The notes below the pieces were generated by a model. It made no database searches and was not told where the DNA came from. It worked only from the letters and a program-made list of their open reading frames with translations. A stretch of DNA of 64,000 nt, from contig JAUYKM010000016.1 of NCBI GenBank assembly GCA_030699125.1, forward strand, positions 12,845-76,844. Reading direction: 5' to 3'. The stretch is from Candidatus Daviesbacteria bacterium (GTDB lineage: Bacteria; Patescibacteriota; Microgenomatia; Daviesbacterales; UBA10151). Shown one piece after another: positions 1 to 35,184 of this stretch. Position 1 is the first letter of the stretch. Each line of letters begins with the position of its first letter. A program made the translations under genes and the position numbers.

Positions 1-927
1 CAATGATTTTGGCAGTTTTTAGATCCATCATTTTATTTAAAACAATCACCCCTCCAAAAGCAGACACTGGATCAGCTGCAATTGCCCGCTCCAAGGCTTG
101 TTTTGAATCTTTTCCAATGGCGACGCCACAAGGACTGTGGTGTTTAATGACACATGCCACAGGCTCCTTAAACATCCTGACAGTCTCGAGCCCGGCAAAA
201 ACATCTCCCATATTTGTCCCTGATAAATCTCTTCCCCATAAGTGTTTAAGTTTGGCAAAAGGCGAGTTAGTGTTAGGGCTCAGATAAAATGCCCCCTTCT
301 GATGAGGATTTTCGCCGTAGCGCAAAATTTCCACTCTTCTGAAGGGTACTGTCAGCTCAGGTGGAAATAGCTCATCGGAAAAATATTTGCCAATCTGGGA
401 ATCATATACTGAAAGATGATAAAAAGCCTTCGCAGCCAAATGCTTTCTTAATTTAACCCCCAAACTGTTCCTGGCTAAAACATCTGCTATCATCTCATAA
501 TCATTTGGGTCAATTACCACCAAGACAGATTCATAATTTTTGGCAGCAGCTCTTACCATTGTTGGGCCGCCAACATCAATATTTTCCACATTTGGCTTTT
601 TCTCAAATGGGTAAAGATTACATATAACAATATCTATTCCAGGGATTCCCAATCTTTGCGCCTGTTTTACATGATCTGATTTTTTTCTGTCATATAATAT
701 CCCGCCTGCTATTTGGAAGCTGATAGTTTTTATCCTACCGTCAAATAATTCTCTGGGATTTTTGGTAATTTGTTCAATGGGGGTCGCCTTTATTCCATTC
801 TCAATTAAAATTTTATAAGTTCCCCCTGTTGAAATAATTTCATAATTTAAAGACCTTAAAACTTTGGCAAACTTTACTATTCCTTCCTTATTATATACGG
901 AGATGAGAGCAATTTTTTTCGAATTCA
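1..927 (-). CDS. purH: Bifunctional AICAR transformylase / IMP cyclohydrolase PurH, 3'-truncated by window edge
   Basis: Reverse-strand translation from ATG at 925-927 reads MNSKKIALISVYNKEGIVKFAK...(MGS-like domain)...GVDIVICNLYPF...GGPTMVRAAAKN...HHSPCGVAIG and continues to position 1 without a stop. It is absent from the ORF track because no stop lies in the window. It sits next to other pur genes. Confidence 0.85.
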
Positions 928-939
928 TATCCAAAAAAA

Positions 940-2028
940 TTAAGTCAGAATTTTATCCAACTCTCCCTTCTGGAGGGCAAGCTTAATTTCCATTGCTACC
1001 CTTTTCCCCATTGATAAATTCTCCCCATATAAATATCCGCTATATGGGGTGGAAAAAATTCCGGGACTTCCCGGCATTCTGGGAGAAACATCAAAAACAA
1101 TAATTTCTTTTTTAGGTGGCCCGGGAATTATCATAGTCTGCAATCCGAATGGACCAATAACCGGGACCTTCATTCTCTTTGTTGCTTTCATAAATCTTTC
1201 TCCAATTGCAAATGCATCTTCCAGTAATGATTCCAGAATACTAACTGAAATATGACCTGCCTCTTCATATTTAATCCTTCCACCTATGTCATGAAATTCT
1301 TGCTGATATTCCGGAGAAAGTTTGGATAAACCTTCATGATTAGTTTGCCGTCTCGTATCTGTACCAATAAGTTCAAGTCTTTCATTTATTGGACTATAGA
1401 AAAAATTAAAGTTAACTTGAACCCCAACAATAAATTCTTCAATAATCCCATTTTTCAAATTATTTTCTGCAATTTCTCCTTTATCTATTCTTTGTCTTGA
1501 TTTCGCAATATATTCCTTATAACTATTTACTAGAAAGAATGCTCTTTCGAATCCCCTCTCCTTTTCCAAAACTTTAATAATACAAAGTCTATCTATGTCT
1601 TTAGGACTATTAAATTGTTTAGGGTATCTGATTTTTTCGCTATCCAGTAGATCATATTGATTTGGTTTAATTCCCCGCTCTTCATATTTTAATAAAAATC
1701 TATTTCCAAACATGGGCACTTTAAATTTTTTCTCAATGGCATTGTAATCATTTATATAAACTTCAAATGACCTATGCGGAATAAAAATTACATTTCTTTT
1801 TATTAATTCTTTTTGTATCTGAGGTTTTAATATATCTCTAAAGTTATTCAATAAAAGCACTTCATCTACACAACCTAATCCATCTTTTGAGGCGTAATAT
1901 TTTTGATAAGTTTTCTCTCTCCCTTTTTGACAGATCACTAGAGTTTTAAAACCCTCGTCTTTGGCTCCACGGCATACATCTAATGCAGAATGAGAACCCA
2001 AGACAGCAATTGTGCGTTGTTTATCCAT
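940..2028 (-). CDS. purP: Archaeal-type formate-dependent FAICAR synthetase PurP (ATP-grasp, DUF1246/DUF1297), paralog 1
   Basis: 362 aa; N-terminus TIAVLGSHSALDVCRGAKDEGFKTLVIC. Further motifs (IPHRSFEVY, KVPMFGNR, FFYSP, GTD.R.QTN, GPFGLQ, FDVSPRMPGSPG, MGKRVAMEIKLA) match my recollection of Methanocaldococcus PurP (MJ0136). Confidence 0.8.
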   Translation of the reverse strand: MDKQRTIAVLGSHSALDVCRGAKDEGFKTLVICQKGREKTYQKYYASKDGLGCVDEVLLLNNFRDILKPQIQKELIKRNVIFIPHRSFEVYINDYNAIEKKFKVPMFGNRFLLKYEERGIKPNQYDLLDSEKIRYPKQFNSPKDIDRLCIIKVLEKERGFERAFFLVNSYKEYIAKSRQRIDKGEIAENNLKNGIIEEFIVGVQVNFNFFYSPINERLELIGTDTRRQTNHEGLSKLSPEYQQEFHDIGGRIKYEEAGHISVSILESLLEDAFAIGERFMKATKRMKVPVIGPFGLQTMIIPGPPKKEIIVFDVSPRMPGSPGIFSTPYSGYLYGENLSMGKRVAMEIKLALQKGELDKILT

Positions 2029-3044
2029 TAATCTAGAACTTCCTTTAACTTATTTTTTTTGATGGCGTTTTTGATTTCTCTAGCTATACGACGCCCGGTA
2101 GACATTGGCTCATCATAAAGCAAATATGTATATGGCGATCCATCAATGAAACAATTAGTACCGGCCACAATTCTGGCTGATATTTCTATTGTAAAAATTT
2201 CCTCAGTTGAGGTAATAATTGTCTCCAGACAAAATGGACCAAATAATCCTTTGGGTGGCATTAATTTTTGAGATACATTAATCACCCGATCTGCCATTGA
2301 CATTGCCTCAGCCAACATTGACTCCCTAACAGCCATCGGGATATTGGCAACCACTTCAAAAGATGGCTCAATATTTAAACCTTGCTGATTTTTTGCAGGA
2401 ATTCGACCCAAAGAATCAACATTAGTTTCATATCGTTTATCAACACTCATTACTTCTAATTTTTTAGTTAAAGTTGAGTAGAAAAAATGAAAATAAACCG
2501 GAACTCCAATAACATATTCCTGGACGATGAACCGCGCTTCTTCAAAGGTTTTCAGCCGCTCATCAAGTTCCTTCTGGTTTTTAGCAACAAAGTATCCCTT
2601 GCCGCCGGCAGCTCCATATGATTTAACAATCACAGGCTTATCTATTCGATCACCCTTTCTATAACGGTGAGGTAGTTTTACCCCTGCCTCTTCCATCCAA
2701 AGCCTTTGCATTTTTCTATTTTCTTCCCAATCCAAAACTAATTTATTACCAAAATAAGGAACCTTCATTTGTTTGTTTTGATCAAGTCCCAAATAAGCCA
2801 CAAAAGAACCGTGGGGAATAATAATACAATTCTTCTTAAGTAGCTGGATTTCAAGTTTTGGAAAATCATCCCAGGATTCTATTTGAATTATTTCATCAAT
2901 GAATTTATCGTAGTATCTATAAAGTGTGGTTCTATCAGGAGTACAAATTACTAAAGTTTTAAACCCTTCATCTTTGGCGCCTTTTAAAATTTGCAAAGCG
3001 GAGTGAGAACCAAAAGTGGCAATTGTGTAATTTCTAAATCCCAT
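2028..3044 (-). CDS. purP: Archaeal-type FAICAR synthetase PurP, paralog 2
   Basis: 338 aa; IATFGSHSALQILKGAKDEGFKTLVIC, IPHGSFVAY, KVPYFGN, FHFFYS, MSVDKRYETNVD, IPAKNQ, GPFCLE, ISARIVAGTN, STGRRIAREIK. The stop/start codons overlap paralog 1 by one nucleotide (tandem). Confidence 0.8.
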   Translation of the reverse strand: MGFRNYTIATFGSHSALQILKGAKDEGFKTLVICTPDRTTLYRYYDKFIDEIIQIESWDDFPKLEIQLLKKNCIIIPHGSFVAYLGLDQNKQMKVPYFGNKLVLDWEENRKMQRLWMEEAGVKLPHRYRKGDRIDKPVIVKSYGAAGGKGYFVAKNQKELDERLKTFEEARFIVQEYVIGVPVYFHFFYSTLTKKLEVMSVDKRYETNVDSLGRIPAKNQQGLNIEPSFEVVANIPMAVRESMLAEAMSMADRVINVSQKLMPPKGLFGPFCLETIITSTEEIFTIEISARIVAGTNCFIDGSPYTYLLYDEPMSTGRRIAREIKNAIKKNKLKEVLD

Positions 3045-3065
3045 ATCGTATTATATTAAACATGA

Positions 3066-4346
<1,281 letters not shown>

Positions 4347-4361
4347 TAAAATACCTTCTGT

Positions 4362-4811
4362 ATGCAAAGTCATGAAAGACCAATTTTTACAGATCTTGCT
4401 AGTCAAGCATTAAATGCTCGCCCTGCTTTTCGTAATCTACCCCAAACTCTCCAACTAGAGGTAACCGACGGTGTTACTCAATTGATCACAGATTTGGATC
4501 GTATATGTAAAAGTAGTTGGAATAACGTAACCTTCTCAGGATGGAGAATCTTAGTTTTCAGTCATCCTTATGCAGGTGATACTAATTTAGCACAGTCATT
4601 AAGGCAACAAATAAAAGATTGTGGTATGCATCCCAAAACAGCTGCTGCTTTAGTCAATGGTTCTTTAAGAGACTCTGTCATGATGATCCAAAGCCATGTT
4701 ACAACCATGGAAGAGCTAAAACGTATTTTGGGAAAGTTTGAAAGAGGAAAAGCAGGGTCAGAAGGCAGAACTTTTCATAGTAATGAAGTAGGTCCTCCTG
4801 ATACTATTTGA
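4362..4811 (+). CDS. Hypothetical protein (149 aa), no recognisable family
   Basis: Intact ORF between purA and the guaA-3'-end remnant. No motif recognised. Possibly cargo of the adjacent cassette. Confidence 0.4.
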   Translation: MQSHERPIFTDLASQALNARPAFRNLPQTLQLEVTDGVTQLITDLDRICKSSWNNVTFSGWRILVFSHPYAGDTNLAQSLRQQIKDCGMHPKTAAALVNGSLRDSVMMIQSHVTTMEELKRILGKFERGKAGSEGRTFHSNEVGPPDTI

Positions 4812-4886: not shown

Positions 4887-5120
4887 TTAGAATTGAACTA
4901 CTGGTACATCTATTCTTGTAACAGAGCTTTTTCTTTTTAAAACTTCTTGAATTCTTTGATCAATTTGATGACTAACTTTAGCATCAAAATATCTTTCTCC
5001 ACATTTAGTACAAATTAAACTAGGCACATCATTTAATGCAATCAGTTCCTTTCCCCAATATCGAGCAATATCCACATTTTCTCTTTTTAATTTTCCACCA
5101 CATTGATAGCATTTATTCAT
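4887..5120 (-). CDS. YgiT-type (MqsA-like) zinc-ribbon protein, putative antitoxin
   Basis: 77 aa; CYQCGGKLK...VPSLICTKCGERYFD. Two CxxC pairs with the spacing of YgiT/MqsA N-terminal zinc ribbons. Lies directly downstream of a DUF4258 gene. Confidence 0.65.
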   Translation of the reverse strand: MNKCYQCGGKLKRENVDIARYWGKELIALNDVPSLICTKCGERYFDAKVSHQIDQRIQEVLKRKSSVTRIDVPVVQF

Positions 5121-5123
5121 ATT

Positions 5124-5441
5124 TCACCTCTTTCTAATTGTACCACCAATCCATTCTACTTGGCTAGGTATATAATTGGTAACAATCACAGGTTTACCAA
5201 ATCTTAAACCAATTACTACGTGAACCAATCTACCATCGTTAGTTTTACCAGCAATTAGCCTACTTTCTCCTCTTGGATCATCCAGTCTTTCCTCTATTAC
5301 TCTACCAGATAACACTACTTTTTCCACCTCTTGGGCTGTTAAATTATCTTTGGTTCTTTCTTCATCAGCATGATCAGAAAATAAATAATCTTTTTTCTTT
5401 ATTCGTCTTTGAATTTCTTTAAAAGTCATTGTTACTCCCAT
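5124..5441 (-). CDS. DUF4258-family protein, putative toxin of a type II TA-like pair
   Basis: FSDHADEERTKDN...VLSGRVIEE...GESRLIAGKTNDGRLVHVVIG...PVIVTNY fits the DUF4258 pattern. The likely true start is Met at 5429 (MTFKEIQ...), 2 nt after the guaA stop. The track's longer start at 5441 overlaps guaA. Confidence 0.65.
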   Translation of the reverse strand: MGVTMTFKEIQRRIKKKDYLFSDHADEERTKDNLTAQEVEKVVLSGRVIEERLDDPRGESRLIAGKTNDGRLVHVVIGLRFGKPVIVTNYIPSQVEWIGGTIRKR

Positions 5442-6970
5442 TCCATAGTTGCTGGAGGTTTAGTGGTGATGTCATAAACTACCCTGGAAACTCCCGGGAC
5501 TTCATTGACAATTCTGGAGGAAATTTTTTGCAAAATTTCATAGGGGATTTTGGACCAAACTGTAGTCATCACATCTTTGGACTCAATAATTCTTATTGCC
5601 ATAACTTCCAAGTGAGAGCGCTCATCACCTTTGACTGCCGTACTTTTGGTATCAGTTAAAATGGCAAAACTCATATAAACTTTATCGTAAAGATTGGCTT
5701 TTGTTACTTCCTCAACCACTATTGCATCAGCCTGTTGTTGTCTTTCCAAACGCTCTTTTGTCACTTCCCCAATAATCCGAATGGCTTGTCCAGGTCCTGG
5801 AAAAACTTGCTTGGAGACTACTTCATTTGGTAACCCCAGTTTTTCCCCAATCAATCTCACTTCATCTTTATAAAAATTTCTCAAAGGTTCCAAAAGCACA
5901 AGACTCATCTCATCCGGCAATCCCCCAACATTATGATGAGATTTAATCTTATCTGCCTTTTTGGTTCCCCTACTTTCAATCACATCAGAATAAATTGTTC
6001 CCTGGGCTAAAAACTTTACTCCCTTTAACTTTTTGGCCTCTCTTTCGAATAGTTTAATATAAAGAGCACCAATGGTTTTTCTTTTTTGCTCCGGATCTGT
6101 AATATCTTTGAGGGCAGAGAGAAACTGCTTTTTGGCATCAACAATAATGGGATTTAACCTTAGATGTTTTTGGAAAATTTGTAAAACTTCCTCTTTGGTG
6201 CCAATTCTCATCAACCCGCTTTCAATATAAATAGGATATAAATTTTTACCAATGGCTTGACCAATCAAAGCTGCCGCCACTGTTGAATCCACCCCCCCGG
6301 AAACTGCACAGATAACTTTATTATTTCCCACCTTCTGTTCTATATTTTCAATAATGGCATTAACATTGATTGATTGCTTAACGATTTTTTCTCCACAAAT
6401 ATTTTGGGCAAAGTTAATAAGAATTTTTAAACCAAAGACAGTGTGCATAACTTCCGGATGGAACTGCACCCCAAAAATCTTATTTCTTAAATCTGCCACT
6501 GCTGCTGCTTTAACAGAATCTGTTTCTCCTAAATATGTAAAACCTTTGGGGATGATCACCACGCTGTCTCCGTGACTAACCCAAACAACAGAGTTATTTT
6601 CCACGCCGGAAAGAATACCCCCTTCATTTATTATGATCAGGTTGGCCGGTCCATATTCTTTATGTCCTGAAACTACTTTACCTCCCAAAAGACGGGCTGT
6701 TAGCTGCCAACCGTAACAGATTCCAAGAATTGGAATTCCCAAACTGAAAATTTTTTTATCAATCGTGGGAGCGCCTTTACTGTATACAGATGCCGGACCT
6801 CCTGAAAGAATAATTCCAGCCACTTCATCGTCATTCCCGCGAAGGCGGGAATCCATAATAAACTTAACAGCATCTTCCGGATCAACAATCTTTACCAAAA
6901 CACCATGATCCCGAAGTCTTCTTCCAATTAAATGTGCAGTTTGTGACCCAAAATCAACTAGAGTTATCAT
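5432..6970 (-). CDS. guaA: GMP synthase (glutamine-hydrolysing)
   Basis: 512 aa; GATase GICYGWQ, PP-loop VSGGVDSTV, C-terminal ...PPATMEWE. Carries an in-frame palindromic-repeat insertion encoding MDSRLRGNDDE near the N-terminus. Confidence 0.92.
   Translation of the reverse strand: MITLVDFGSQTAHLIGRRLRDHGVLVKIVDPEDAVKFIMDSRLRGNDDEVAGIILSGGPASVYSKGAPTIDKKIFSLGIPILGICYGWQLTARLLGGKVVSGHKEYGPANLIIINEGGILSGVENNSVVWVSHGDSVVIIPKGFTYLGETDSVKAAAVADLRNKIFGVQFHPEVMHTVFGLKILINFAQNICGEKIVKQSINVNAIIENIEQKVGNNKVICAVSGGVDSTVAAALIGQAIGKNLYPIYIESGLMRIGTKEEVLQIFQKHLRLNPIIVDAKKQFLSALKDITDPEQKRKTIGALYIKLFEREAKKLKGVKFLAQGTIYSDVIESRGTKKADKIKSHHNVGGLPDEMSLVLLEPLRNFYKDEVRLIGEKLGLPNEVVSKQVFPGPGQAIRIIGEVTKERLERQQQADAIVVEEVTKANLYDKVYMSFAILTDTKSTAVKGDERSHLEVMAIRIIESKDVMTTVWSKIPYEILQKISSRIVNEVPGVSRVVYDITTKPPATMEWE
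6830..6854. repeat. GC-rich palindromic hairpin element GTCATTCCCGCGAAGGCGGGAATCC inserted in-frame in guaA
   Basis: 8-bp arms (ATTCCCGC/GCGGGAAT) around a 4-nt loop. Encodes MDSRLRGNDDE at a position where E. coli GuaA has no corresponding residues. Same family as 23340-23363, 43748-43771, 59323-59397. Confidence 0.75.
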
Positions 6971-7776
6971 GAGTTTTCCTTAATATAATTTATCATCTCT
7001 TCAAATATAAATGCGCCATGGGGCTTTATGAGTTTTTCACGACGCCAATTAGGATATTGAGTAATATCCACAAATTTCTCAGGATGCGGCATTAATCCCA
7101 AAATTCTACCTGAAGGATCCGTCACTCCGGCTATTGCATTTAAGGATCCGTTTGGATTTTCAGGATAACTTTGTATAGGATTTCCGTCGCTATCAACATA
7201 CCTAAATACCACTAAGTTCTGTGTTTCTATCTTCTTCAACGTCTCTGCGTTCCCAAGGAATTTTCCTTCCCCATGATTAACAGCAAAATGCCCTACACCG
7301 TAGTCTCCTTTAAGAAATACACATTTGCTTTTTTCATTTTTTAAATCAACCCATCTGCACTCAAAATGTCCGCTATCATTAGGAGCCAGCGTTGCATCCA
7401 TTTTTCCCATATTCCCAAAAGGCAAAAGGCCACATCTTACAAGAACCTGAAATCCATTACAAATGCCAATAATCAGTCCCCCTCTTTTTCTAAAATTTTC
7501 TATCTCATCCCTTAAAAAACTTATCAGCTCAATGGCCCAAATCTTTCCAGATACTACATCATCTCCATAAGAAAATCCTCCCGGTAAAGCCAGGATACGG
7601 AAATCTTTGAGAGTTTTAGGTCTATTTCTTAACTCGTTAATATGAACAAATTGCGGATTTCCTCCGAATTTTTTGAAAGCATAAAAAAGCTCATTATCAC
7701 AATTGGTGCCATCAGATTGTAAAATGCAAACATTGACTTTTTTCATCCAAATACCTCCATCATTGGTCTTGACCAA
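6967..7776 (-). CDS. purQ: Phosphoribosylformylglycinamidine synthase, glutaminase subunit PurQ
   Basis: 269 aa; class I GATase with GICNGFQ catalytic Cys motif. 34-nt overlap with purL. Confidence 0.88.
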   Translation of the reverse strand: MVKTNDGGIWMKKVNVCILQSDGTNCDNELFYAFKKFGGNPQFVHINELRNRPKTLKDFRILALPGGFSYGDDVVSGKIWAIELISFLRDEIENFRKRGGLIIGICNGFQVLVRCGLLPFGNMGKMDATLAPNDSGHFECRWVDLKNEKSKCVFLKGDYGVGHFAVNHGEGKFLGNAETLKKIETQNLVVFRYVDSDGNPIQSYPENPNGSLNAIAGVTDPSGRILGLMPHPEKFVDITQYPNWRREKLIKPHGAFIFEEMINYIKENS

Positions 7777-10385
7777 GCTTTTTGTAACCTATCTATATCA
7801 GTTGTAAACAAATTTTCAACCATCAACTTTTCATCTTTAATAGTTTTTCCTAATATTTCATAGGGAATCCCCTTAAATAATTTTTTGGCAATTTCTTCAT
7901 TTTTCACTTCAACAATAAAACATCCTGCAGTTTCACTTAGCAACTTTTTACCATCGACTTTAATCTTTACTCCACAGTTTCCTCCCACACACATTTCAAA
8001 GATTGTCGTAATTGGCCCCCCTTCACTGACATCATGACACGCTAAAACTTGTCCCTCTTTAATTGCTTTATAAATTTTTTCTAAGACTTTCGGTAAAATT
8101 TTTATATCTATATATGAAATTTCATTTTCCAGATCTTGTTTTCCAACTAATACAATTGTTGAACCAATCTTTTTAAAATCGGATGAAATTGTTTTTTTAG
8201 CATCGGGAATCCTCCCAAAAACTGAAATGCAAAGAGTAGGTGGACTATGTAGAACAAATCCATTTGATCCGCGATACGTTGCAGACAGACTATCTTTTCC
8301 GGAAATAACCGGAATTTTAAGCGCTTTCATAAAATCGCAAACAGCATCAACACATCTGTCTAATTTCCCTAACCATTCCTCATCAGGAAAAGGCCAAATA
8401 TAATTATTAATCAAGGATGCATTTTTATAATCACCCCCAACTGCAACATAGTTTGAGATTGCCTCTGATGCTGCCCAAATACTTCCCCAATATGGATCAC
8501 TCATAGTAAAAGCTGGATTAAGCCCGTGAGAAACAATCAGTCCATAAGGCTTATCTAAAATTGGTTTAATAACTGCGGCATCATTAGGTCCATCCATTCC
8601 AACTCCAGTAAATGGATGCAGGGCATTTGTCCCCTGCACATTATGGTCATACATCCTAAGTATCGGCTCTTTAGAATTTATATTCCCATGACTTAAAATC
8701 TTTTCTAAATGGTTTATCCACCCCTTTTTTGTCTTTGGTATGTTCAGGTGCGACCTTGACCAAGGTGCAACCTTAACATTGGTTGCGTGCATAACACGTT
8801 GTGGCAGTCCTCCGTACAGAAACTTCATCTCCAAATCTCCTACTTTTTCTTTTCCATAAAATACTTGTAGCCTTTTGCTGCCATCAAATTCGCCAATTTC
8901 AGTTGTCTCCACATTATATTTTTTACAGATCTTTACAAATTCTTTAAGGTTTTTTTTAGGAAGAACTATTAACATTCTTTCCTGTGATTCGGATACCCAA
9001 ATTTCCCAAGGTGACAAACCCTGATATTTGAGTGGAGCTTTTTCCAGATGAACTGTTACCCCTACTTTTTCTCCCATTTCTCCAATAGCAGAAGATAAAC
9101 CACCTGCTCCCAAATCCTGTACTGCTCTTATTAAGTCTTTATCTCTTGCCTCAAGTATGGCATCAAAAGTTCTTTTCTCCTCTATAGCATTTCCTATTTG
9201 TACGGCTGTTGCATTAACTTTAACAGTTTTCTCGCTCATGACAGCAGATGAAAATGTAGCACCATGTATCCCGTCTCTTCCTGTTTTTCCTCCAATCACA
9301 ACTGCCAGATCAGCTATTTTGGGTTTACCCTTTTCCGCTTTATTTCTTGGCAAAATCCCATATGATCCAACCAAAACTATTGGCTTGGCTCTAAAATCTT
9401 CGTGAAAATGAAATGAACCGTTATTGGAAGGGATACCGATTCTATTTCCATAATCCCTCACAGCTGCCACCACTCTTTTCAATATATAGTCCGGAGGTAG
9501 CGTGCCGGCAGGTAATTTATTTTTTGGTGTGTTTGGTGGAGCCAAACAAAAGATATCAGTTGATATTAAACATTTTGCTCCCTGGCCTGTTGCCACAATA
9601 TCTCTAAAAACTCCGCCAGATCCGGTCATGGCACCACCATATGGTTCAATAGCTGAGGGAGCATTGTGAGTTTCTGCTTTTCCATTTATTGCCAGTCCAT
9701 CATAAAAATCCATTACTCCTGAATTATCGACAAAAGCTGAAACTATATTTTTTTTGTGTTTATATGCTTCTTTTTTTATTCTCTCAATTAGCGGCATCTT
9801 ATTTTTTCCATCAACGACCAATTTGGCTTTAAAGGTTTTATGGGCACAATGCTCGCTCCAAGTTTGAGCCAAAGTTTCCAGTTCCAAATCTGTGGGATCT
9901 CTTTTTATTTTTTGAAAATAATTTTGAATTGTTTTCATCTCTTCCAAATTTAAGAAAAGCTTATCTTTTGATAATAAAAGTAGTTCCTTATCTTCCATTT
10001 CTCTTATAGGAACAACTGCAGTTTTTCCTACCCTTTCTTTTATTAGAAGTGTTGTTGGTTCTTTTTTTACAATATTTTCTATTAGTGGATTGAAAGCGGG
10101 CGCTTTATTTAAGTATTCCTTTGAGGAATCACAAGCAATAAGATTTACTTTTAAATCTCTGGCAGCTTTAATAATTGAGGCGACCTCCGGATTCATTACC
10201 CCCATCTTATAGGCAATTTCAATTACATTGAAAAAAATCGATTTATTAATAGTATAGGTTTGATTTATGTTTTCACAGAATAGTTTTTCAGCCAAAATTT
10301 TTGCCTGTTTTTCTGTTATTCCCTCCAAACGGTAAACTTTTGCTGTTGGATTTTTATTTGTTCTAACTCTAACAGTCTGAATCAT
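7743..10385 (-). CDS. purL: FGAM synthase PurL with fused N-terminal PurS-like domain (PurS-PurL fusion, glutaminase domain separate)
   Basis: 880 aa. The ~90-aa N-terminal region is PurS-like; the rest is the FGAM synthetase (AIR-synthase-related) core. About 140 aa longer than stand-alone small PurL. Confidence 0.85.
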   Translation of the reverse strand: MIQTVRVRTNKNPTAKVYRLEGITEKQAKILAEKLFCENINQTYTINKSIFFNVIEIAYKMGVMNPEVASIIKAARDLKVNLIACDSSKEYLNKAPAFNPLIENIVKKEPTTLLIKERVGKTAVVPIREMEDKELLLLSKDKLFLNLEEMKTIQNYFQKIKRDPTDLELETLAQTWSEHCAHKTFKAKLVVDGKNKMPLIERIKKEAYKHKKNIVSAFVDNSGVMDFYDGLAINGKAETHNAPSAIEPYGGAMTGSGGVFRDIVATGQGAKCLISTDIFCLAPPNTPKNKLPAGTLPPDYILKRVVAAVRDYGNRIGIPSNNGSFHFHEDFRAKPIVLVGSYGILPRNKAEKGKPKIADLAVVIGGKTGRDGIHGATFSSAVMSEKTVKVNATAVQIGNAIEEKRTFDAILEARDKDLIRAVQDLGAGGLSSAIGEMGEKVGVTVHLEKAPLKYQGLSPWEIWVSESQERMLIVLPKKNLKEFVKICKKYNVETTEIGEFDGSKRLQVFYGKEKVGDLEMKFLYGGLPQRVMHATNVKVAPWSRSHLNIPKTKKGWINHLEKILSHGNINSKEPILRMYDHNVQGTNALHPFTGVGMDGPNDAAVIKPILDKPYGLIVSHGLNPAFTMSDPYWGSIWAASEAISNYVAVGGDYKNASLINNYIWPFPDEEWLGKLDRCVDAVCDFMKALKIPVISGKDSLSATYRGSNGFVLHSPPTLCISVFGRIPDAKKTISSDFKKIGSTIVLVGKQDLENEISYIDIKILPKVLEKIYKAIKEGQVLACHDVSEGGPITTIFEMCVGGNCGVKIKVDGKKLLSETAGCFIVEVKNEEIAKKLFKGIPYEILGKTIKDEKLMVENLFTTDIDRLQKAWSRPMMEVFG

Positions 10386-12280
10386 AATCTTTGAATATCT
10401 CTCCAGCCAATATCTTTTCTATAATGCAAATTATTTCCTTCAATATTTATTAAAGACATTGCATTATATACTTTTTTTTGAGTTTCCAAAACACCTTTGC
10501 CCTCTGCCATTAGATATAACACTCTTCCCCCATTCACTACATAATTTCCATTATTTTCTTTAATACCGGCTCCGAAAATTTTTATTTCAATTTTTTTTAA
10601 CTTTTCTATGCCAAAAATTTTCTTACCTTTAGTACCTGAGTAATCAACCGGGTAACCTCTAGAAGTTGCCGCCACAACAACTCTTACTTTCTCATCAATC
10701 TTTAATCTTAAATCATTAATCTTTCCGTTAAGTATGGCCATCCCCACTTCATAAAAATCATTTTGTATGGATGGAATAATTACTTCTGCTTCTGGATCTC
10801 CCCAGCGGGCATTAAATTCAATTACATAAACCTCGCTCCCAACCACCGTTCCACCTAAATAAAGAACTCCTTTATATGGTCTCTTTTCTTTTTTTAACCC
10901 GTTTATGGTTTTTCTAAAAATTTCTTTTACTTGTTTTTTTATATTTTGATTAACAACCAGGGGATTGGAAACACAACCCATCCCCCCGGTATTTGGACCG
11001 CGGTCTCCATCATTTGCTCTTTTATGATCTTGAGCATACCCCACCACTTTAAAATTTTTTCCATCGCAAAGTGCAAAGGCTGAAAACTCTTCGCCTTCTA
11101 ACCATTCCTCTATTAAATAAGTTCTCCCGCTTTTGCCAAATCTTTTCATCTCCTTTATAGCACTTATTGCTTCATTCAAACTGGTTACCGCTATTGCTCC
11201 TTTTCCCTCTGCAAGCCCTGATGCTTTGATGAACCATCTCTTTCCAGGATTTTTTTTAGCAAAATTTATACCATCTTTTTCATTATCAAATTTATAAAAT
11301 ACAGGAGAGGGAATTTGATACTTTTTCATAAATTTCCTAGCCCAGGCTTTATCCCACTCGATCTGTCCGGCATCTTTGGTGGACCCAACAGATGGAATAC
11401 CAATTTTAGTCAGCTTATTTACCAAACCTGCCTCCACTGCATTATCTTGGGCAACATCCACCAAATCAACTTTCTCCCTCTTACAAATTTCTAGGATTTC
11501 TTTAGTTGAGGTTGTTTTTAAATTGGGATAAATCATAACTTTTTTATTAGTATTAATTTGCATTAAGTCGTTTCCAGGTACTACTAAAATTCTGCCCACA
11601 TATTTACTCTGTCCATATTTATCCACCAGAACTGCCCCTCTTCCTCCGCCATCGATAACCATAATAGTTTTCCCATTTTCTTGACAAAGTCTTACTAAAA
11701 CATCATCATATAATTTATTTTCTTTTTTCTTCAGTCTCACGTAAAGTGATTCAACAGTATCTACTTTCTTGATTCTCTCAAAACATCTTCCCAGAACCTG
11801 ACCAAAATCAAATTCATGAGATAAAAAATTGACAGAGGAACCTGCATATGTTGCTTTAGAATCCAAAAAATTTTGTATAGCTTTTTGAGTAAATTTTCCT
11901 CTGTTCCACAGTCCGTCTGTGCCATCCGGATTTTTAACAACTCCATCCAAACTATCTGGTATTAACCCAGGATGAATATTTAAAATTTTATTTGGGAAAG
12001 TTCTTATCATTTTATCTGGAATAATTTGTTTCCAACCTGCCAGACAAATGTAATCAACACCTAAATTCTGAAGTAATTTTATTAGATTATCTCTCTTTTT
12101 TATGGTTTTGAATGATATATTGGCTTTTTTTGCTCTAATCAAGCCATATGCATTATCTGTATCTGATATTACAGAAATAATTTTGGCATTAATTTTGCCG
12201 AAGGAAATCCCATCTATAATTGCCTGTAGGTTGGTACCACTCCCTTTATTAGAAATTAAAACAACTAACTTTTTCATCAA
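10382..12280 (-). CDS. purD: Fused GAR transformylase (PurN, N-terminal ~195 aa) and GAR synthetase (PurD, C-terminal ~430 aa)
   Basis: N-terminal VLISNKGSGTNLQAII...NIHPGLIP (PurN motifs), then MVIDGGGRGAVLVDKY...ATP-grasp PurD. Single 632-aa ORF without an internal stop. Confidence 0.8.
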   Translation of the reverse strand: MMKKLVVLISNKGSGTNLQAIIDGISFGKINAKIISVISDTDNAYGLIRAKKANISFKTIKKRDNLIKLLQNLGVDYICLAGWKQIIPDKMIRTFPNKILNIHPGLIPDSLDGVVKNPDGTDGLWNRGKFTQKAIQNFLDSKATYAGSSVNFLSHEFDFGQVLGRCFERIKKVDTVESLYVRLKKKENKLYDDVLVRLCQENGKTIMVIDGGGRGAVLVDKYGQSKYVGRILVVPGNDLMQINTNKKVMIYPNLKTTSTKEILEICKREKVDLVDVAQDNAVEAGLVNKLTKIGIPSVGSTKDAGQIEWDKAWARKFMKKYQIPSPVFYKFDNEKDGINFAKKNPGKRWFIKASGLAEGKGAIAVTSLNEAISAIKEMKRFGKSGRTYLIEEWLEGEEFSAFALCDGKNFKVVGYAQDHKRANDGDRGPNTGGMGCVSNPLVVNQNIKKQVKEIFRKTINGLKKEKRPYKGVLYLGGTVVGSEVYVIEFNARWGDPEAEVIIPSIQNDFYEVGMAILNGKINDLRLKIDEKVRVVVAATSRGYPVDYSGTKGKKIFGIEKLKKIEIKIFGAGIKENNGNYVVNGGRVLYLMAEGKGVLETQKKVYNAMSLINIEGNNLHYRKDIGWRDIQRL

Positions 12281-13692
12281 ATTTTTGCATAAGAGGGATG
12301 GAAATTAATTTCCTTACTTCTTTCTCCAATATCGATTGGGTATTTACCTGTAAAACAGGACATGCAGAGTTTGCTCTCCGGAAGTCCAATGGCTTGAATC
12401 AATCCTTTATAGGAAAGATAATGCAGTGAATCAACCCCTATTTCTTTAGCAATAGCTCCATGACTTTTATAGGAAGCAATTAATTCTTTTTGATTTGGAG
12501 TATTAATGCCATAAAAATCCGGAAATCTCACCGGTGGAGAAGAAATCATTAAATGAACCGATTTTGCTCCTCCGTCTCTTACCATCTTAATAATCTGTCT
12601 GCAGGTAGTTCCCCTGACTATTGAGTCATCGACTACAATAATTCTTTTATTTTTCAAAATATGTTTCATCGGATTTAGCTTAAGTTGCACAATTCTATCT
12701 CTAGTATGTTCCTCGGGAGAAATAAAAGTCCTATGAACATAACGGTTTTTGATAATGCCTGGATAATAAGGTATTTGTGACTGGCGAGAAAAGCCAATGG
12801 CAGCAGGAATGGCAGAATCCGGTACAGGTATTACCAAATCTCCTTTTACTGTATGTTCTTTTGCTAATTGCTTACCTAAATTTTGTCTAATCTGATCGAC
12901 ACTTTTTCCTAAAATTATACTATCTGGTCTGGCAAAATAGACAAATTCAAATACATCTAATTTTTGATCTCCTTTTTCTACCTGTATGCTTCTTATACCC
13001 TTCTCATCTACCACCACCATTTCACCTGGTTTTACCTCTCTTAGGAATTTGGCTCCAATAATATCCAGAGCACATGATTCAGATGCAAAAATATACCCGC
13101 TATTTAGTTTTCCGATACACAAAGGTCTGATACCACATCTGTCCCTAGCTGCTACAATTTTTTTCTCATCCATTGCCAGGATACAAAAAGATCCGGTAAA
13201 GTAAGGCCACGATTTTCCTATAGCTTTTTCCAAACTATTATTTCCTTTGACAAAATATGAAATGATTTGAGTCATCATGTCAGAATCATTTAACCCTTTG
13301 GTAGAAATACTTTTTTTATCTAAAAAATTTTTAATTTTTTCAACTGAAGGCAGATTACCATTATGGGCAAGCGCGATAGATTTTTTGTTATTTATTTTTG
13401 CTATGATGGGTTGGGCGTGGGCATCAAAAAAATCTCCAGAGGTGGAATACCTATTTTGACCAATGGCAAGATGACCTGTCAATTTTTTTAGATCTTCTTC
13501 TGAATAGACATGGGCTACCAATCCAGGCCCTTTCTTAAATCTCAATTTTTTGCCATCTGATGCTGCAATACCTGAAGATTCTTGTCCTCTGTGTTGAAGA
13601 GCCCAGAGTCCGGGATGTACTAATCGGGCTGCCTTAAAATCCTTACCAAAGACTGCAAAAATACCGCATTTTTCTCTTAATTTACTTCTCAT
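12277..13692 (-). CDS. purF: Amidophosphoribosyltransferase
   Basis: 471 aa; N-terminal MxxKxREKCGIF (Ntn Cys), PRTase motif VVDDSIVRGTT. Confidence 0.9.
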   Translation of the reverse strand: MRSKLREKCGIFAVFGKDFKAARLVHPGLWALQHRGQESSGIAASDGKKLRFKKGPGLVAHVYSEEDLKKLTGHLAIGQNRYSTSGDFFDAHAQPIIAKINNKKSIALAHNGNLPSVEKIKNFLDKKSISTKGLNDSDMMTQIISYFVKGNNSLEKAIGKSWPYFTGSFCILAMDEKKIVAARDRCGIRPLCIGKLNSGYIFASESCALDIIGAKFLREVKPGEMVVVDEKGIRSIQVEKGDQKLDVFEFVYFARPDSIILGKSVDQIRQNLGKQLAKEHTVKGDLVIPVPDSAIPAAIGFSRQSQIPYYPGIIKNRYVHRTFISPEEHTRDRIVQLKLNPMKHILKNKRIIVVDDSIVRGTTCRQIIKMVRDGGAKSVHLMISSPPVRFPDFYGINTPNQKELIASYKSHGAIAKEIGVDSLHYLSYKGLIQAIGLPESKLCMSCFTGKYPIDIGERSKEINFHPSYAKI

Positions 13693-16585: not shown

Positions 16586-18394
16586 TTAGTTGTGATTCAT
16601 CATAATAGAAAGAAGTACAGGTTTCTTTCTAATGTAGGTAATAGTTAGGGGAAGATTCAAATCCCTTATTTCTGGATTTTCATCAAAGCGTACCTGAGGT
16701 CGTTTCCTCCCTTTGGCTTCTCTATTATAACTTTTTATAAATGATCTAACCTCTGAAATTTCATCTTTTTCTAATTTATAATCAGTAAATTGCATTCTTC
16801 CAAATAAAGCAGCTGCGTTCAAAAGAAGATAAAAAACACTTGTATCAAATTCTTCTCCCGCATTATTAATCACTAAATCATTATGACCATTAATTGTTCC
16901 GATTAAGGCTATTTTTTCAACATTAGAGTCCCCACCAATAGTTTTAGAATCAAAAATGCAGCTAACACTATCTCCTTCTTGTTGTATAGCTACCAATCCA
17001 AGACTACCTAATTTAGATAACGTATTACTTGATGGTAGTAGGTCTGGAATAACCACAATTGCTCTGGATCCTTTAGTATTTGTTGCGTATCCGGCAAGTA
17101 CATCCAAGGCTACATCTTGATTAATTCCAGATTCTGCTAACTTTTTATTTAAAACCTTAAGGAGCATTTCTAAATCTTCTCCAACCACTCCAATCTCGCC
17201 CCAAGTTTTGGATTGCAATGTTGTATCTGCAGTAATTCTCGACTCTTCTGGCTGTTTTCCCAAACCCTCTGTTTTTTGCTCTATTTGCTCAACCTTTGAG
17301 GTATATATTATTTTTACTCCCTGTTTTTTTTGTTCTGCAAGGAACTCATCTTTTATTTTGCCGAGGGGGATCAATCTTGCTCTAGCTTCAGCGTTTGAAT
17401 TCATATATAAAACACCTGGCTTAACATCTTTTAATACAGCTTGCTCATCGACAAAAGACTGAGGGGATGCTGATTGGCTAATTAGTTCTTGTAATTTTCC
17501 AGTAATAACTTCCGTAGCTGGATTTTGAGGATATTTAGCCAGAAAAAAACCTGCAGCAACTAACATTCTTCTGATAAATCTATCTTGCTGATTATGACTA
17601 TATCCACTAAATGGAATGGTTTCTAAAAACTCTGCATATCCATCAGCAGCATCAGGATAAGCATCGGGATTGAAGTAAAAGTAGCGGAATAAATTTTCCT
17701 TCTCAGTAACAACCGTTTTCCAAAAATCCATTTGTAATCTAGGATGGTCTAAAAAATATTTAACAAAGTCTTTTGAGGTGTGGGGGTAATTAGCCTTTGT
17801 TTCATTATCCAAATGAGCAGCAAATCCCCAACCAAACGACCAAATATTCATTTCTCTGGTACGACTAATTGCTGCACCAAACTTTCCTTCTAAAAGAAGT
17901 CTTGAAAAGCGGGGATCCTTCCAGATATTATCATCAGTAGCCCAAGTTAGCTTATCATGCCAAGCTCTTGATTGTGGACTGACTACCTCCGCCCAATATG
18001 AAGAATATTCTCTTTCCTGCCTGAGTAAGTTCTGCAGGGAGTAATCCATTTTTATTATAATTTCTGCCTCTTCATCTGTCTGCGGAGTTTTTGTCAAAAC
18101 ATTACCCAGCCATCCTTTAAACTCCTCAGTAGTATTTTTGGCTCCAAGATATGCTGTGTCATCCTCTGCAAGAGCATATGACTCAGTTCTTGCTACCTCA
18201 GCGTATAGTCTTTTCTTACCCCTCGCCAAACGATTCGCTCCCAGGTTGAATACATATCTTTTCTCTATAGGAAGGTTAGTTTGATAAATTAGCGTTTCCG
18301 CCAAAACCAAGGCGCGGAAAGATCTGCTTAGCGCTTCATCTGCAAAAGGACGCTCTGATAAAATTTCTTGTAGCATTTGCCAACCTAAAACCAA
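16586..18394 (-). CDS. Large hypothetical protein (602 aa), no recognisable family
   Basis: Long intact ORF with no TM segment or catalytic motif I can name. W/Y-rich N-terminal half (WGFAAHLD, NPDAYPDAADGY). Confidence 0.5.
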   Translation of the reverse strand: MVLGWQMLQEILSERPFADEALSRSFRALVLAETLIYQTNLPIEKRYVFNLGANRLARGKKRLYAEVARTESYALAEDDTAYLGAKNTTEEFKGWLGNVLTKTPQTDEEAEIIIKMDYSLQNLLRQEREYSSYWAEVVSPQSRAWHDKLTWATDDNIWKDPRFSRLLLEGKFGAAISRTREMNIWSFGWGFAAHLDNETKANYPHTSKDFVKYFLDHPRLQMDFWKTVVTEKENLFRYFYFNPDAYPDAADGYAEFLETIPFSGYSHNQQDRFIRRMLVAAGFFLAKYPQNPATEVITGKLQELISQSASPQSFVDEQAVLKDVKPGVLYMNSNAEARARLIPLGKIKDEFLAEQKKQGVKIIYTSKVEQIEQKTEGLGKQPEESRITADTTLQSKTWGEIGVVGEDLEMLLKVLNKKLAESGINQDVALDVLAGYATNTKGSRAIVVIPDLLPSSNTLSKLGSLGLVAIQQEGDSVSCIFDSKTIGGDSNVEKIALIGTINGHNDLVINNAGEEFDTSVFYLLLNAAALFGRMQFTDYKLEKDEISEVRSFIKSYNREAKGRKRPQVRFDENPEIRDLNLPLTITYIRKKPVLLSIMMNHN

Positions 18395-23339: not shown

Positions 23340-23423
23340 GTCATTCCCGCGAAAGCGGGAATCTATATTTTATGGATCCCGCATCAAGTGCGGGATGACA
23401 GAGATCGTTGAGACGCCTCTGTC
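23340..23423. repeat. Cluster of three GC-rich hairpin repeats (GTCATTCCCGCGAAAGCGGGAATC; GGATCCCGCATCAAGTGCGGGATGAC; GACAGAG-N13-CTCTGTC) between ybaB and folD, overlapping the folD 3' end
   Basis: Perfect stems read directly. The last two units encode the folD C-terminal tail ...VTEASQRSLSSRT and span its stop codon (23384-23386). Confidence 0.75.
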
Positions 23424-24232
23424 ACATTTCTCAAAAGACATGCAATTGTTAAGGGACCAATTCCCCCAATAGTTGGACAATATAATTTGGCTTTTTGGGA
23501 AACTTCCTCTTCATTAATATCCCCATAAATTCTGGGCTGCTCATCTATTATCTCTTTCCCAACTCCAACTCCTATAACATATGCCCCATTTTTTATGTTA
23601 GATCCATTAATAATGTTTTTCTTTCCAGTTGCAGAGATAACAACACCAGCATTCTTGATAATTTTATTAGGATTTTCTGTCTTTGAATCTATCACAGTTA
23701 TACTGATTCCCTTATCTTTTAATAAATTTATTGTCGGCCCTCCTGCAGTTTTTCCTTTTCCCAAGATGACCACTTTTTTCCCTTTTAAAAAGTCTTTAGC
23801 GTTTTTAAAACTTTCATGTACTGCAAATGCTCCAATCATTTCCCACACCGCCAAGGCAGTTGCTCCTTTAAATGGTGAGTTTCCCAAAAATCCATCTACA
23901 TCTTTAGAGATAGTCACTTTTGATGAAATCTCATCAAAATCCCAGCCCTGATAGAGCGGATATTGGACAATGATTCCGTAAACTGATGCATCTCTATTTA
24001 AATTACTAACAGTTTCTAGGCATTTTTTTTCTTGATTAGAAGAAAATTCATAAAGTTTTGCCTTGATACCAATTTTTTCAGCAGTTTTTATTTTATTGTT
24101 CACATAAACTCTCGAGGATGGATTATCACCTGCCAAAATTATGGCTAAAGAGGGTTTTAAATTTTTCTTTTCTATTTCCTCTTTAAGTTTATTTAGTATG
24201 TTATCAGCAACTTCTCTTCCGGAAACTTTCAT
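23384..24232 (-). CDS. folD: Methylene-THF dehydrogenase / methenyl-THF cyclohydrolase
   Basis: 282 aa; KDVDGF motif, Rossmann GxGxxxG. C-terminal ~13 aa encoded by palindromic repeats. Confidence 0.88.
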   Translation of the reverse strand: MKVSGREVADNILNKLKEEIEKKNLKPSLAIILAGDNPSSRVYVNNKIKTAEKIGIKAKLYEFSSNQEKKCLETVSNLNRDASVYGIIVQYPLYQGWDFDEISSKVTISKDVDGFLGNSPFKGATALAVWEMIGAFAVHESFKNAKDFLKGKKVVILGKGKTAGGPTINLLKDKGISITVIDSKTENPNKIIKNAGVVISATGKKNIINGSNIKNGAYVIGVGVGKEIIDEQPRIYGDINEEEVSQKAKLYCPTIGGIGPLTIACLLRNVTEASQRSLSSRT

Positions 24233-24256: not shown

Positions 24257-25555
24257 CTAATCAATCCCAGGCACTGGAAATCTTCCAGCAAATTTTTCTA
24301 CTTCTCTTCTGATTTGTATTAAATTTTTATTCTGATGTAATTTAATTTTGGCCATTTTTAGAAAATCTTTTCTTTTATCTTGCTCTTTAGGTAAATCCAA
24401 TCCTATTATTTCTTCTAGTGCTCTTTTAATCCAGCTTGCCACCTTAATCATATCCTTTTCATCCATCCCACGGGTAGTAAGAGCTGGTGTTCCCAATCTT
24501 ATTCCCGAGGGATAAAAAGCTGATGCTGGCTCACCAGGAATGGTATTTCTATTAACAGTAATCCCTACCTCCTCTAGGGCATATTGAGCTTGATAACCCA
24601 TTCCATACCCATACCTTATCAAGGATAGAAGTATCAGATGAGTTTCAGAAATTGTTCCTAACTCCTTTGCTAAAAAAGAAGCATTCTTAGCAACTTGCTG
24701 AGCATATTTTTTAAATGAAGGCTTCAATGCTTCTTCTAAACAAACAGCAATAGCTGCTGTTTGATGATTATGTGGTCCACCTTGAGCACCAGGAATAATG
24801 GCTTTTTCTATTTTAGATTTTATGTCCGGATCTTTTTTTAAACCTCTCTCAGTTACCAAAATCATTGCTCCCCTTGGTCCCCTCAAAGTTTTGTGAGTGG
24901 TAGTCATAATAATATCCACATATGGGACAGGTGATTCATGCACTCCTGCTATTATTAGACCAGTTATATGAGAGCAATCCGCAACTAAAGTTGCCTCAAC
25001 TTCATCGGCAATTTTTCTAAATCTTCTGTAATCTAGTTTATATGGGTAAGCTGTTGTCCCTGCCCAGATTAATTTTGGCTTATGAATTTTTGCAAGTTTT
25101 TCCAATTCTTCAAAATCTATTTTCCAATCTTTACCAACATTATAATTAACAGCTTTATAAAAAATTGAAGAAAAACTCAAGTTGGCTCCATGAGTGAGAT
25201 GTCCACCAGATGCTATAGATAATCCCATCACTACATCCCCAGGATTACAAACGGCCATGGTAATAATTAAATTAGCAGGTGACCCTGAATATGGTTGGAC
25301 TAGAGCAACAGGTACCTTGAATAATTTTTTTGCCAAGTCAGAAGCATAATTTTCAATCTTATCTATTACTTCATTACCACCGTAATACCTTCTACCAGGA
25401 AAACCTTCTGAATATTTATTGGTGAGGATTGATCCTAAGGCTTTTAAAACATCTTCCGAGACATAATTTTCCGAAGGAATCATCTCCAGCCCATATTTTT
25501 GTCTGTGAGCCTCTTCTGCAATTAATGGAAAAACCTGTGATGCCATAGAAATCAC
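24257..25555 (-). CDS. glyA: Serine hydroxymethyltransferase
   Basis: 432 aa; PLP-lysine motif TTTHKTLRGPRG. Confidence 0.92.
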   Translation of the reverse strand: MISMASQVFPLIAEEAHRQKYGLEMIPSENYVSEDVLKALGSILTNKYSEGFPGRRYYGGNEVIDKIENYASDLAKKLFKVPVALVQPYSGSPANLIITMAVCNPGDVVMGLSIASGGHLTHGANLSFSSIFYKAVNYNVGKDWKIDFEELEKLAKIHKPKLIWAGTTAYPYKLDYRRFRKIADEVEATLVADCSHITGLIIAGVHESPVPYVDIIMTTTHKTLRGPRGAMILVTERGLKKDPDIKSKIEKAIIPGAQGGPHNHQTAAIAVCLEEALKPSFKKYAQQVAKNASFLAKELGTISETHLILLSLIRYGYGMGYQAQYALEEVGITVNRNTIPGEPASAFYPSGIRLGTPALTTRGMDEKDMIKVASWIKRALEEIIGLDLPKEQDKRKDFLKMAKIKLHQNKNLIQIRREVEKFAGRFPVPGID

Positions 25556-34692: not shown

Positions 34693-35184
34693 TTATCGCT
34701 CCAAATCTAAAAATTTATATTTCAATCCGTCACTTTCATGTTTTTCTTCAAACACCACTTTTTTAAAATCAGAATAATCCGGGAAAAAGGTGTCTGCCTG
34801 GGGATTTCCTTTCACAATAGTTAAGTACAATTTATTAGCTCTTTTAATTGCCTGCTGATAAATCTGGCCCCCACCGATGATGAACACTTCTCCGCCGGCT
34901 GGCGGCTTCTCTTTTTCTTTGACCATCTTCATTGCCTCATCTAAAGAATGTACTGCTAGTACCCCCTCCACATAATAATCTAGATCTCTGGTAATAATAA
35001 TGTTCGTTCTATTTGGTAAAGGATGTCCGATGGATTCAAAAGTTTTTCTGCCCATGATAATCACATGACCCTCTGTTAACTTTCTAAATCTTTTTAAATC
35101 ATCCGGAATACGATAAATTAGTTTATTATTTTTCCCAAGTGCTTTATTGCCAGAGGCAATCACCGCAATCAAGGATATTTTCAT
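34693..35184 (-). CDS. folA: Dihydrofolate reductase
   Basis: 163 aa; IAVIASGNKALGKNN.LIYRIPDDLKRFR..T.GH.IIMGRKTFESIG. Confidence 0.9.
   Translation of the reverse strand: MKISLIAVIASGNKALGKNNKLIYRIPDDLKRFRKLTEGHVIIMGRKTFESIGHPLPNRTNIIITRDLDYYVEGVLAVHSLDEAMKMVKEKEKPPAGGEVFIIGGGQIYQQAIKRANKLYLTIVKGNPQADTFFPDYSDFKKVVFEEKHESDGLKYKFLDLER

Follow-up and report, generated by a model that had tools for sequence, protein, structure and literature searches.

An archaeal-type PurP class II and class III gene pair in the purine operon of Candidatus Daviesbacteria and other Microgenomates

PurP has been described as a signature gene of archaea. The family is divided into classes, of which class I/II of Zhang (2008) and Cruz (2019) corresponds to cluster Ia/b of Brown et al. 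(2011) and class III to cluster II. Formation of FAICAR (5-formamidoimidazole-4-carboxamide ribonucleotide) by a PurP, i.e., FAICAR synthetase activity (EC 6.3.4.23), has been demonstrated only for the class I protein MJ0136 (PMC6486802). Classes II and III co-occur in all 61 archaeal operational taxonomic units (OTUs) that have them (PMC6486802). In Pyrococcus furiosus the class II protein, PF1517, binds ATP and 5-aminoimidazole-4-carboxamide ribonucleotide (AICAR), neither it nor the class III protein PF0421 makes FAICAR alone, and a heterohexamer has been proposed (PMC6486802, PMC3261824). Archaeal class III (e.g., PF0421) has no structure and no known activity, ten archaeal OTUs carry purH beside PurP II and III (PMC6486802), and no bacterium had purP in the latest survey, which covered 1,403 complete genomes (PMC6486802). 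Here we describe a tandem purP pair, one gene of class II and one of class III, in a 64,000-nucleotide stretch of Candidatus Daviesbacteria DNA (GCA_030699125.1, contig JAUYKM010000016.1, positions 12,845 to 76,844), which in its full length is called “the window” below. We consider it probable, though by no means assured, that the pair is an anciently acquired archaeal two-subunit formate/ATP-dependent system for AICAR formylation, parallel to the folate-dependent PurH encoded beside it.

An original prediction, made from the letters of the window alone, had placed two tandem purP genes at 940–3044, and two such open reading frames (ORFs) fill exactly this interval on the minus strand, followed by purH:

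2028..3044, minus strand: copy B, homologue of purP class II/cluster Ib, 338 aa (Pfam, PDB 2r84, signature residues, neighbor-joining tree)
940..2028, minus strand: copy A, homologue of purP class III/cluster II, 362 aa (Pfam, PDB 2r7k, signature residues)
1..928, minus strand: purH, truncated by the window edge to its 5' 309 codons (stop-free translation, Pfam MGS and AICARFT_IMPCHas)

The stop codon of copy B and the start codon of copy A overlap by one base (TAATG), and purH starts, at 928, 12 nt past the stop codon of copy A.

Both ORFs are full-length PurP-family ATP-grasp proteins of archaeal type, as predicted, and the hidden Markov model search raised as a check does not move them to another ATP-grasp family. 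Each carries DUF1246 and then DUF1297 in the N-to-C direction (146.8 and 186.4 bits in copy A, 143.4 and 222.6 bits in copy B, against Pfam gathering cut-offs of 25 and 23.8; E 1e-42 to 1e-66). Each also aligns end to end with a PurP structure: residues 7–337 of copy B with residues 4–333 of PDB 2r84 (PF1517; E 1e-102) and residues 4–361 of copy A with residues 18–360 of PDB 2r7k (E 7e-63). His27 and Arg314, which contact the formyl group, and Ser94 and Ser266, which contact the 5'-phosphate, are present in both window proteins (contacts taken second-hand from Brown et al., 2011, PMC3261824; Methanocaldococcus jannaschii numbering throughout). Among Microgenomates sequences, 78 of the copy B type and 81 of the copy A type, the same four residues vary hardly or not at all.

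The two copies are not duplicates of each other. Cluster Ia/b is marked by a (K/R)GG(K/R)G P-loop and by Asn258, which contacts the AICAR carboxamide, and cluster II by a loop that is two residues longer and without glycines and by His258, while His27 and Arg314 are conserved throughout the PurP clusters (PMC3261824). Across the 68 full-length representatives in our class alignment, drawn from an exhaustive search that yielded 619 family members at 50% clustering, the correlation is perfect: His258 always occurs with the longer ER(A/G)FF loop and Asn258 always with GAxGGxGYF. Copy B has Asn258 and the loop GAAGGKGYF, in which the first P-loop residue is Ala and not Lys/Arg. Copy A carries the loop LEKERGFERAFF (17 residues rather than 15), which ends in ERAFF and has no glycine P-loop, together with GH at position 258 and a gap at position 325; it has neither the P-loop nor the Asn258 of class I/II. 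At nine positions each class has a fixed residue of its own (class II/class III: 93 G/R, 163 G/E, 199 Q/E, 208 Y/N, 230 E/Q, 255 V/E, 258 N/H, 310 E/D, 317 A/G), and Lys156, Glu200, Arg228, Glu265, Ser266, His27, and Arg314 are common to both.

The split between class II and class III has 100/100 bootstrap support by neighbor-joining (NJ), and copy B groups with PF1517. Copies A and B are 33% identical to each other, as compared with 49.6% identity between copy B and P. furiosus PF1517 and 47% between copy A and the archaeal class III protein P0122. Copy B is a class II/cluster Ib orthologue and copy A a class III/cluster II orthologue. The original prediction, that the same step is encoded three times, is not supported on this point: the copies fall on either side of the 100/100 split, and each has its own invariant, distinct active-site residues. 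The two classes do not appear interchangeable and are better counted as one system than as two, because in archaea the one class always accompanies the other and, on its own, neither P. furiosus protein shows activity.

The purH gene that follows had been described as apparently full-length. That description holds in the relatives; in the window the full length is not readable, because purH runs off the window start from 928. Its 309 stop-free codons encode MGS and roughly the first 60% of AICAR transformylase (positions 1–186 out of 311 in the AICARFT_IMPCHas profile), and the C-terminal ~200 residues lie beyond the window. At the same position in syntenic relatives purH is full-length (511–518 aa), and a 511-aa PurH of one relative aligns end to end with PDB 4ehi and 3zzm (E 1e-94). 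The active-site check gave a similarly divided result. The window translation has the IMP (inosine 5'-monophosphate) cyclohydrolase (IMPCH) motifs GRIKT, NLYPF, IDVGGP, and AAAKN, which we take to hold the catalytic Lys, Tyr, Asp, and Lys of human ATIC (K66, Y104, D125, K137), and it keeps LRYGENPHQ and the Lys-His dyad (IKHHSPCG), while the C-terminal AICARFT motifs (SNAV, GQTSR, SDSFFPF) are seen, intact, only in the syntenic relatives. These PurH motifs are conserved across 44 Microgenomates PurH sequences. KTISFQ replaces the near-universal KTLHPK of the IMPCH domain in 41 of the 44, and KHLSPCG mostly replaces KHxNPCG, although the Levybacteria type retains KHTNPCG. The PurH of the window thus looks intact, with no sign of a pseudogene.

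The pair is not peculiar to this genome. A scan of species representatives in the Genome Taxonomy Database (GTDB) gave 198 relatives of copy A, and the loci analyzed here are the best 80 of these 198. All 80 are Microgenomates-type (Davies-, Levy-, Curtiss-, Roizman-, Woese-, and Gottesmanbacteria), some of the records bearing placeholder or odd titles, so that the pair is common to at least six Microgenomates candidate phyla. In these at least 80 species-level genomes it is always embedded in a pur operon, with copy B at most 2.5 kb upstream of copy A in all 77 loci whose upstream flank is long enough. None of the class-specific residues varies among the 78 copy B-type and 81 copy A-type sequences. 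When 33 Daviesbacteria-type loci are compared with the window, the proteins show median identities of 80% (copy B), 73% (copy A), 67% (PurH), 71% (PurA), and 55% (GuaA), which puts both copies among the best conserved genes of the cluster. Because its class residues are invariant and its identity exceeds that of neighboring genes, copy A is not a decaying duplicate, and we ruled out its being a pseudogene. Taken together, throughout a large radiation of bacteria the pair is a stable, strongly selected part of the purine operon.

A class II and class III pair also occurs on high-GC contigs whose neighboring genes look bacterial (fused guaA, MarR): L086 (7332..11143) and L087, both at 67% GC and from a Joint Genome Institute soil metagenome, and L085 (62% GC). 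Gene order on these contigs is purB, purC, purL, purQ, orf154, purP-II, orf383, purP-III, where orf383 begins with what resembles a signal peptide and matches nothing in Pfam or PDB.

Four operon types emerged from the Microgenomates loci. The Daviesbacteria type, to which the window belongs, reads guaA, purA (minus), B, A, [HAD], purH, purB, purE, purC, prs, and the Levybacteria type purL, purQ, B, purH, (purA), A, purB, and so on. The other two are without purH: the Curtissbacteria type (purM, B, purA, A, purB, purE, purC, guaA) and the Woese-/Gottesman-/Roizmanbacteria type (purN-D, purL, purQ, B, A, purB, purE, purC, purM). Among 73 loci with enough flank, purH lies within the flank in 42, and in the remaining 31 the pair stands between purQ and purB and no purH is near. 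No PurO-like or PurJ-like genes were found in the flanks of the purH-less operons, and a search of their unassigned ORFs for a hidden cyclohydrolase returned only purK, HAD hydrolases, a sortase, an EamA transporter, and pyrG. One related contig carries purH without PurP. In some Daviesbacteria-type operons (L004, L028, L033, L035, L037, L003) copy A is separated from purH, or else from purB, by a HAD-family hydrolase of ~250 aa, perhaps a nucleotidase; the window is without it.

The host of the pair is a bacterium, Ca. Daviesbacteria. The contig carries bacterial hallmarks (trigger factor, RRF, S2, DprA, PBP2, MreC, MreB, pol III tau, RecR, TopA), and a protein from a metagenome-assembled genome (MAG) of Candidatus Daviesbacteria matches copy A at 100% identity. 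The nearest relatives of the pair outside the Candidate Phyla Radiation (CPR) include Micrarchaeota and Aenigmatarchaeota proteins and an archaeal genome (family B polymerase, Pus10, split guaA) with a tandem class III-class II pair. Microgenomates copy A sequences are monophyletic (94/100, NJ bootstrap), as are those of copy B (87/100) if one unplaced high-GC contig is included, and GC content (~0.36) is flat over the purP genes, with no compositional anomaly in the region. Monophyly, archaeal nearest relatives, and flat GC argue for one ancient transfer of the pair. The phylogeny proposed as a check, run here as NJ, places copy B with PF1517 and copy A with class III but does not pinpoint the donor lineage in archaea: sister placement received 6/100 for a group containing Aenigmatarchaeota and 45/100 for PF1517-type sequences. 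Horizontal origin from archaea, as predicted, is the simplest reading, and the acquisition is neither recent nor specific to the genome of the window, because the pair is common to at least six Microgenomates phyla and compositionally unremarkable. An ancestor of the Microgenomates (CPR/Patescibacteria) would have acquired the class II and class III genes together from an archaeon and retained them since as a co-transcribed, translationally coupled unit within the purine operon.

We suggest the following mechanism. Class II and class III would act as one system, probably a hetero-oligomer, that uses formate and ATP, and no folate, to formylate AICAR to FAICAR. With its full ATP-grasp catalytic equipment, the class II subunit (2028–3044) would activate formate. 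The class III subunit (940–2028), re-tooled at a strictly conserved site in which copy A has His in place of the Asn touching the AICAR carboxamide, would be an obligatory nucleotide-binding partner. The adjacent PurH would provide the IMP cyclohydrolase and a parallel, folate-dependent transformylase. Here we infer the formate/ATP chemistry, the heteromer, and the division of labor; the two-subunit system is favored because of translational coupling, universal co-occurrence, conservation above that of neighboring genes, and the replacement of purH in many operons. A formate-using bypass that spares 10-formyl-tetrahydrofolate (10-formyl-THF), as originally predicted, is plausible.

Several observations weigh against this mechanism. 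In vitro, neither PF1517 nor PF0421 worked as a FAICAR synthetase, and for no class II or class III PurP has activity been demonstrated (PMC3261824, PMC6486802). Both window proteins fall under every NCBIfam PurP equivalog cut-off (formate--phosphoribosylaminoimidazolecarboxamide ligase equivalogs; best score 397.8 against 580 for copy B and 267.9 against 556 for copy A), which is why NCBI names such a protein “DUF1297 domain-containing protein.” From general ATP-grasp knowledge we presume that Glu297 and Glu310 are metal ligands and that the loop lost is the ATP loop. The evidence for a heteromer is of co-occurrence and operon structure only, and tight coupling of the pair is not universal, because purA or purH intervenes between the two purP genes in operons of the Curtissbacteria and Levybacteria types. 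Finally, the organism has purN, purH, folD, and glyA and hence no obvious need for a folate-independent route. As predicted, the last two genes are in the window:

23384..24232, minus strand: folD (Pfam THF_DHG_CYH)
24257..25555, minus strand: glyA (Pfam SHMT)

FolD and GlyA supply 10-formyl-THF and 5,10-methylene-THF, so with both genes present the folate-dependent route is available to the host, whose folate one-carbon genes are intact.

The main rival to a two-subunit formylating system, unlikely in our judgment, is that the pair takes AICAR all the way to IMP, with class III or the complex closing the ring and PurH a later, dispensable addition, an idea also raised by Brown et al. (PMC3261824). 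It gains from the 31 of 73 related pur operons that have every other step and neither purH nor a purO-like or purJ-like gene within the flanks, and from the 37 archaeal OTUs that have PurP II and III only, without PurO, PurJ, or PurH (PMC6486802). The changes in class III, moreover, are invariant and lie at or next to published ligand contacts (His258, Glu255, Gln230, and Arg93 next to Ser94), and class III is without the ATP P-loop, as expected for an ATP-independent reaction. However, the absence of purH covers operon flanks only, the archaeal phyletic pattern is imperfect (Brown et al., PMC3261824), and the window retains an intact-looking IMPCH domain. In favor of this rival, between the Daviesbacteria and Levybacteria types PurH is 41% identical and the PurP genes 60–62%, and the position of PurH relative to the PurPs varies; the low PurH identity is not specific, though, because purQ and purL are equally divergent between these lineages, and KTISFQ, common to both PurH types, argues for one old PurH. 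In a stronger form that we hold to be rather unlikely, the pair and not PurH would be the ancestral, sufficient AICAR-to-IMP route of Microgenomates, with class III or the hetero-complex as the IMP cyclohydrolase and purH secondary in Davies- and Levybacteria. If the pair were this ancestral route, the “missing IMP cyclohydrolase” of Crenarchaeota and Pyrococcus would be resolved via a mesophilic bacterial model.

We think it quite improbable that the pair acts elsewhere than in AICAR formylation, e.g., in the ligation of another purine intermediate, with another one-carbon donor, or in salvage or detoxification of AICAR/ZMP (the ribonucleoside monophosphate). PF1517 binds ATP and AICAR without formate-dependent activity (cited in PMC6486802), Zhang et al. 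suggested a different formyl source (as cited in PMC6486802), Candidatus Korarchaeum cryptofilum has a PurP pair without de novo purine synthesis (PMC3261824), and here the canonical step is already covered by PurH. Such a role is nevertheless hard to reconcile with the invariance of the formyl-contacting His27 and Arg314 and of the phosphate-contacting serines, with the way in which the pair stands in for purH in many otherwise complete pur operons, and with the incorporation of formate by Sulfolobus solfataricus extracts in ZMP-to-IMP conversion (PMC3261824).

That the copies are redundant isozymes, each an independent formate-dependent FAICAR synthetase, with step 9 encoded three times, strikes us as highly improbable. 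While both are PurP-family proteins that retain His27, Arg314, Ser94, Ser266, and Lys156, they differ at nine fixed positions of the active-site region and in the P-loop, and their 33% identity to each other compares with 47–50% to their archaeal class counterparts. Redundancy does not predict strict co-occurrence in 61 archaeal OTUs (PMC6486802) and 77 bacterial loci, and neither of the two P. furiosus proteins is active by itself.

An artefact, i.e., archaeal DNA mis-assembled or mis-binned into a bacterial contig, deserves practically no credence even for archaeal-type genes from a MAG, given that they sit on one contig between a bacterial purH and purA/guaA with no GC anomaly and that the arrangement recurs in 80 independent species-level assemblies (the best 80 of 198) and on several closed or megabase contigs, a recurrence of synteny that rules out an assembly chimera.

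The pair stands in a region dense in nucleotide-metabolism genes (purF, purN-purD, purL, purQ, guaA, purA, cmk, folD, glyA, folA, thyA, dcd, tmk, pyrG, pyrF/E/D, def, fmt), a density of purine, pyrimidine, thymidylate, and folate genes that is unusually high for a CPR genome. Further features of the window are:

3050..3078, minus strand: sigma-70-like promoter match TTGACG-17-TATAAT, 11/12, a consensus match only, ending 5 nt 5' of the copy B start
3078..4346, plus strand: purA (adenylosuccinate synthetase), divergent from the purP-purP-purH unit (Pfam Adenylsucc_synt, E 2e-170)
5432..13692, minus strand: guaA, purQ, purL, purN-purD fusion, purF, the upstream part of the same-strand purine cluster (Pfam)
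34693..36143: folA and thyA
61836..62543, plus strand: fmt-like ORF, 235 aa, whose Formyl_trans_N match begins at profile position 77

Only 33 bp (3045..3077) separate the divergent start codons of purA and purP. The promoter match, the best of its kind here, lies inside this spacer and stops 5 nt short of the purP ATG, so that a transcript from it would have almost no leader or none. Shuffling would be expected to give at least as many sigma-70-like matches as the region holds in total. The order guaA/purQ/purL/purN-purD/purF is also seen in relatives. The fused purN and purD (632 aa, 10382..12280, minus strand; Formyl_trans_N and GARS_N/A/C) are separate genes in relative L003, and purF-purN and purC-purM fusions occur in other relatives (L088). 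Between guaA and purA, within the purine cluster, a DUF4258 protein (105 aa) lies beside a 77-aa CxxC...CxxC zinc-ribbon ORF (4887..5441, minus strand); this toxin-antitoxin-like pair is present in the near-identical contig L001 and not at the same position in relatives L002 and L003. Perhaps the ORF rule has misplaced the start codon of the fmt-like ORF, or perhaps this gene is truncated. Three ORFs have no Pfam match (4362..4811, plus strand, 149 aa; 16586..18394, minus strand, 602 aa; 57182..58552, plus strand, 456 aa), the first of which is also called as a gene on L001, and Rfam and tRNA scans of the window gave no matches. The minus strand carries almost all genes from 940 to ~51000, and GC skew is negative throughout the window.

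A conserved PurP pair in bacteria contradicts the statement that purP occurs only in Archaea (PMC6486802). In the literature searched we found no description of PurP in Patescibacteria, although public annotation already labels some CPR proteins PurP, so the kind of gene itself was known. The two-gene unit would be a clear case of ancient archaea-to-CPR transfer. The pair bears on questions that date from 2008–2011, namely the function of classes II and III and the identity of the IMP cyclohydrolase in archaea with only these genes. The proteins tested so far come from a hyperthermophile only and were inactive, whereas Microgenomates offer mesophilic versions and a natural comparison among operons with purH after the pair, with purH between its genes, and without purH, which together make Escherichia coli complementation and comparative genomics practical.

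Set against the known systems, copy B most resembles PF1517 of P. furiosus (class II/cluster Ib; PDB 2R84–2R87), with the same P-loop type, Asn258, His27, and Arg314, and PF1517 is likewise paired with a class III paralogue in its own genome. In contrast to PF1517, which belongs to a hyperthermophilic archaeon and has Lys/Arg as its first P-loop residue, copy B has Ala there and its host is a mesophilic CPR bacterium. Copy A shares His258, the longer glycine-less loop, and the deletion near 325 with archaeal class III/cluster II (e.g., P. furiosus PF0421), and the archaeal class III member that is 47% identical to it is likewise in tandem with a class II gene (L084). Copy A differs from this class in being bacterial, in having Leu, as in all Microgenomates, for the Arg264 common in the class, and in its translational coupling to class II with purH directly after. 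M. jannaschii MJ0136 (class I; EC 6.3.4.23; PDB 2R7K) has the same fold and family and shares the formyl- and phosphate-contact residues with both window proteins (41.5% identity to copy B, 37% to copy A). Unlike the window pair, however, MJ0136 works alone, partnered with PurO, in genomes without a second PurP and without PurH.

The E. coli enzymes PurN and PurT, of which one is folate-dependent and the other a formate/ATP-dependent ATP-grasp enzyme, serve one step between them, the formylation of glycinamide ribonucleotide (step 3), but the analogy extends to function alone: PurT works as a single subunit, at a different step, and without a class III-like partner. A parallel in gene content is found in Methanosarcinales and the ten archaeal OTUs with purP II, purP III, and purH, which have the same three-gene combination, also with purN and folates. 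Why both routes are kept is a question common to these archaea and to the window, where, in a bacterium, the three genes form one operon unit.

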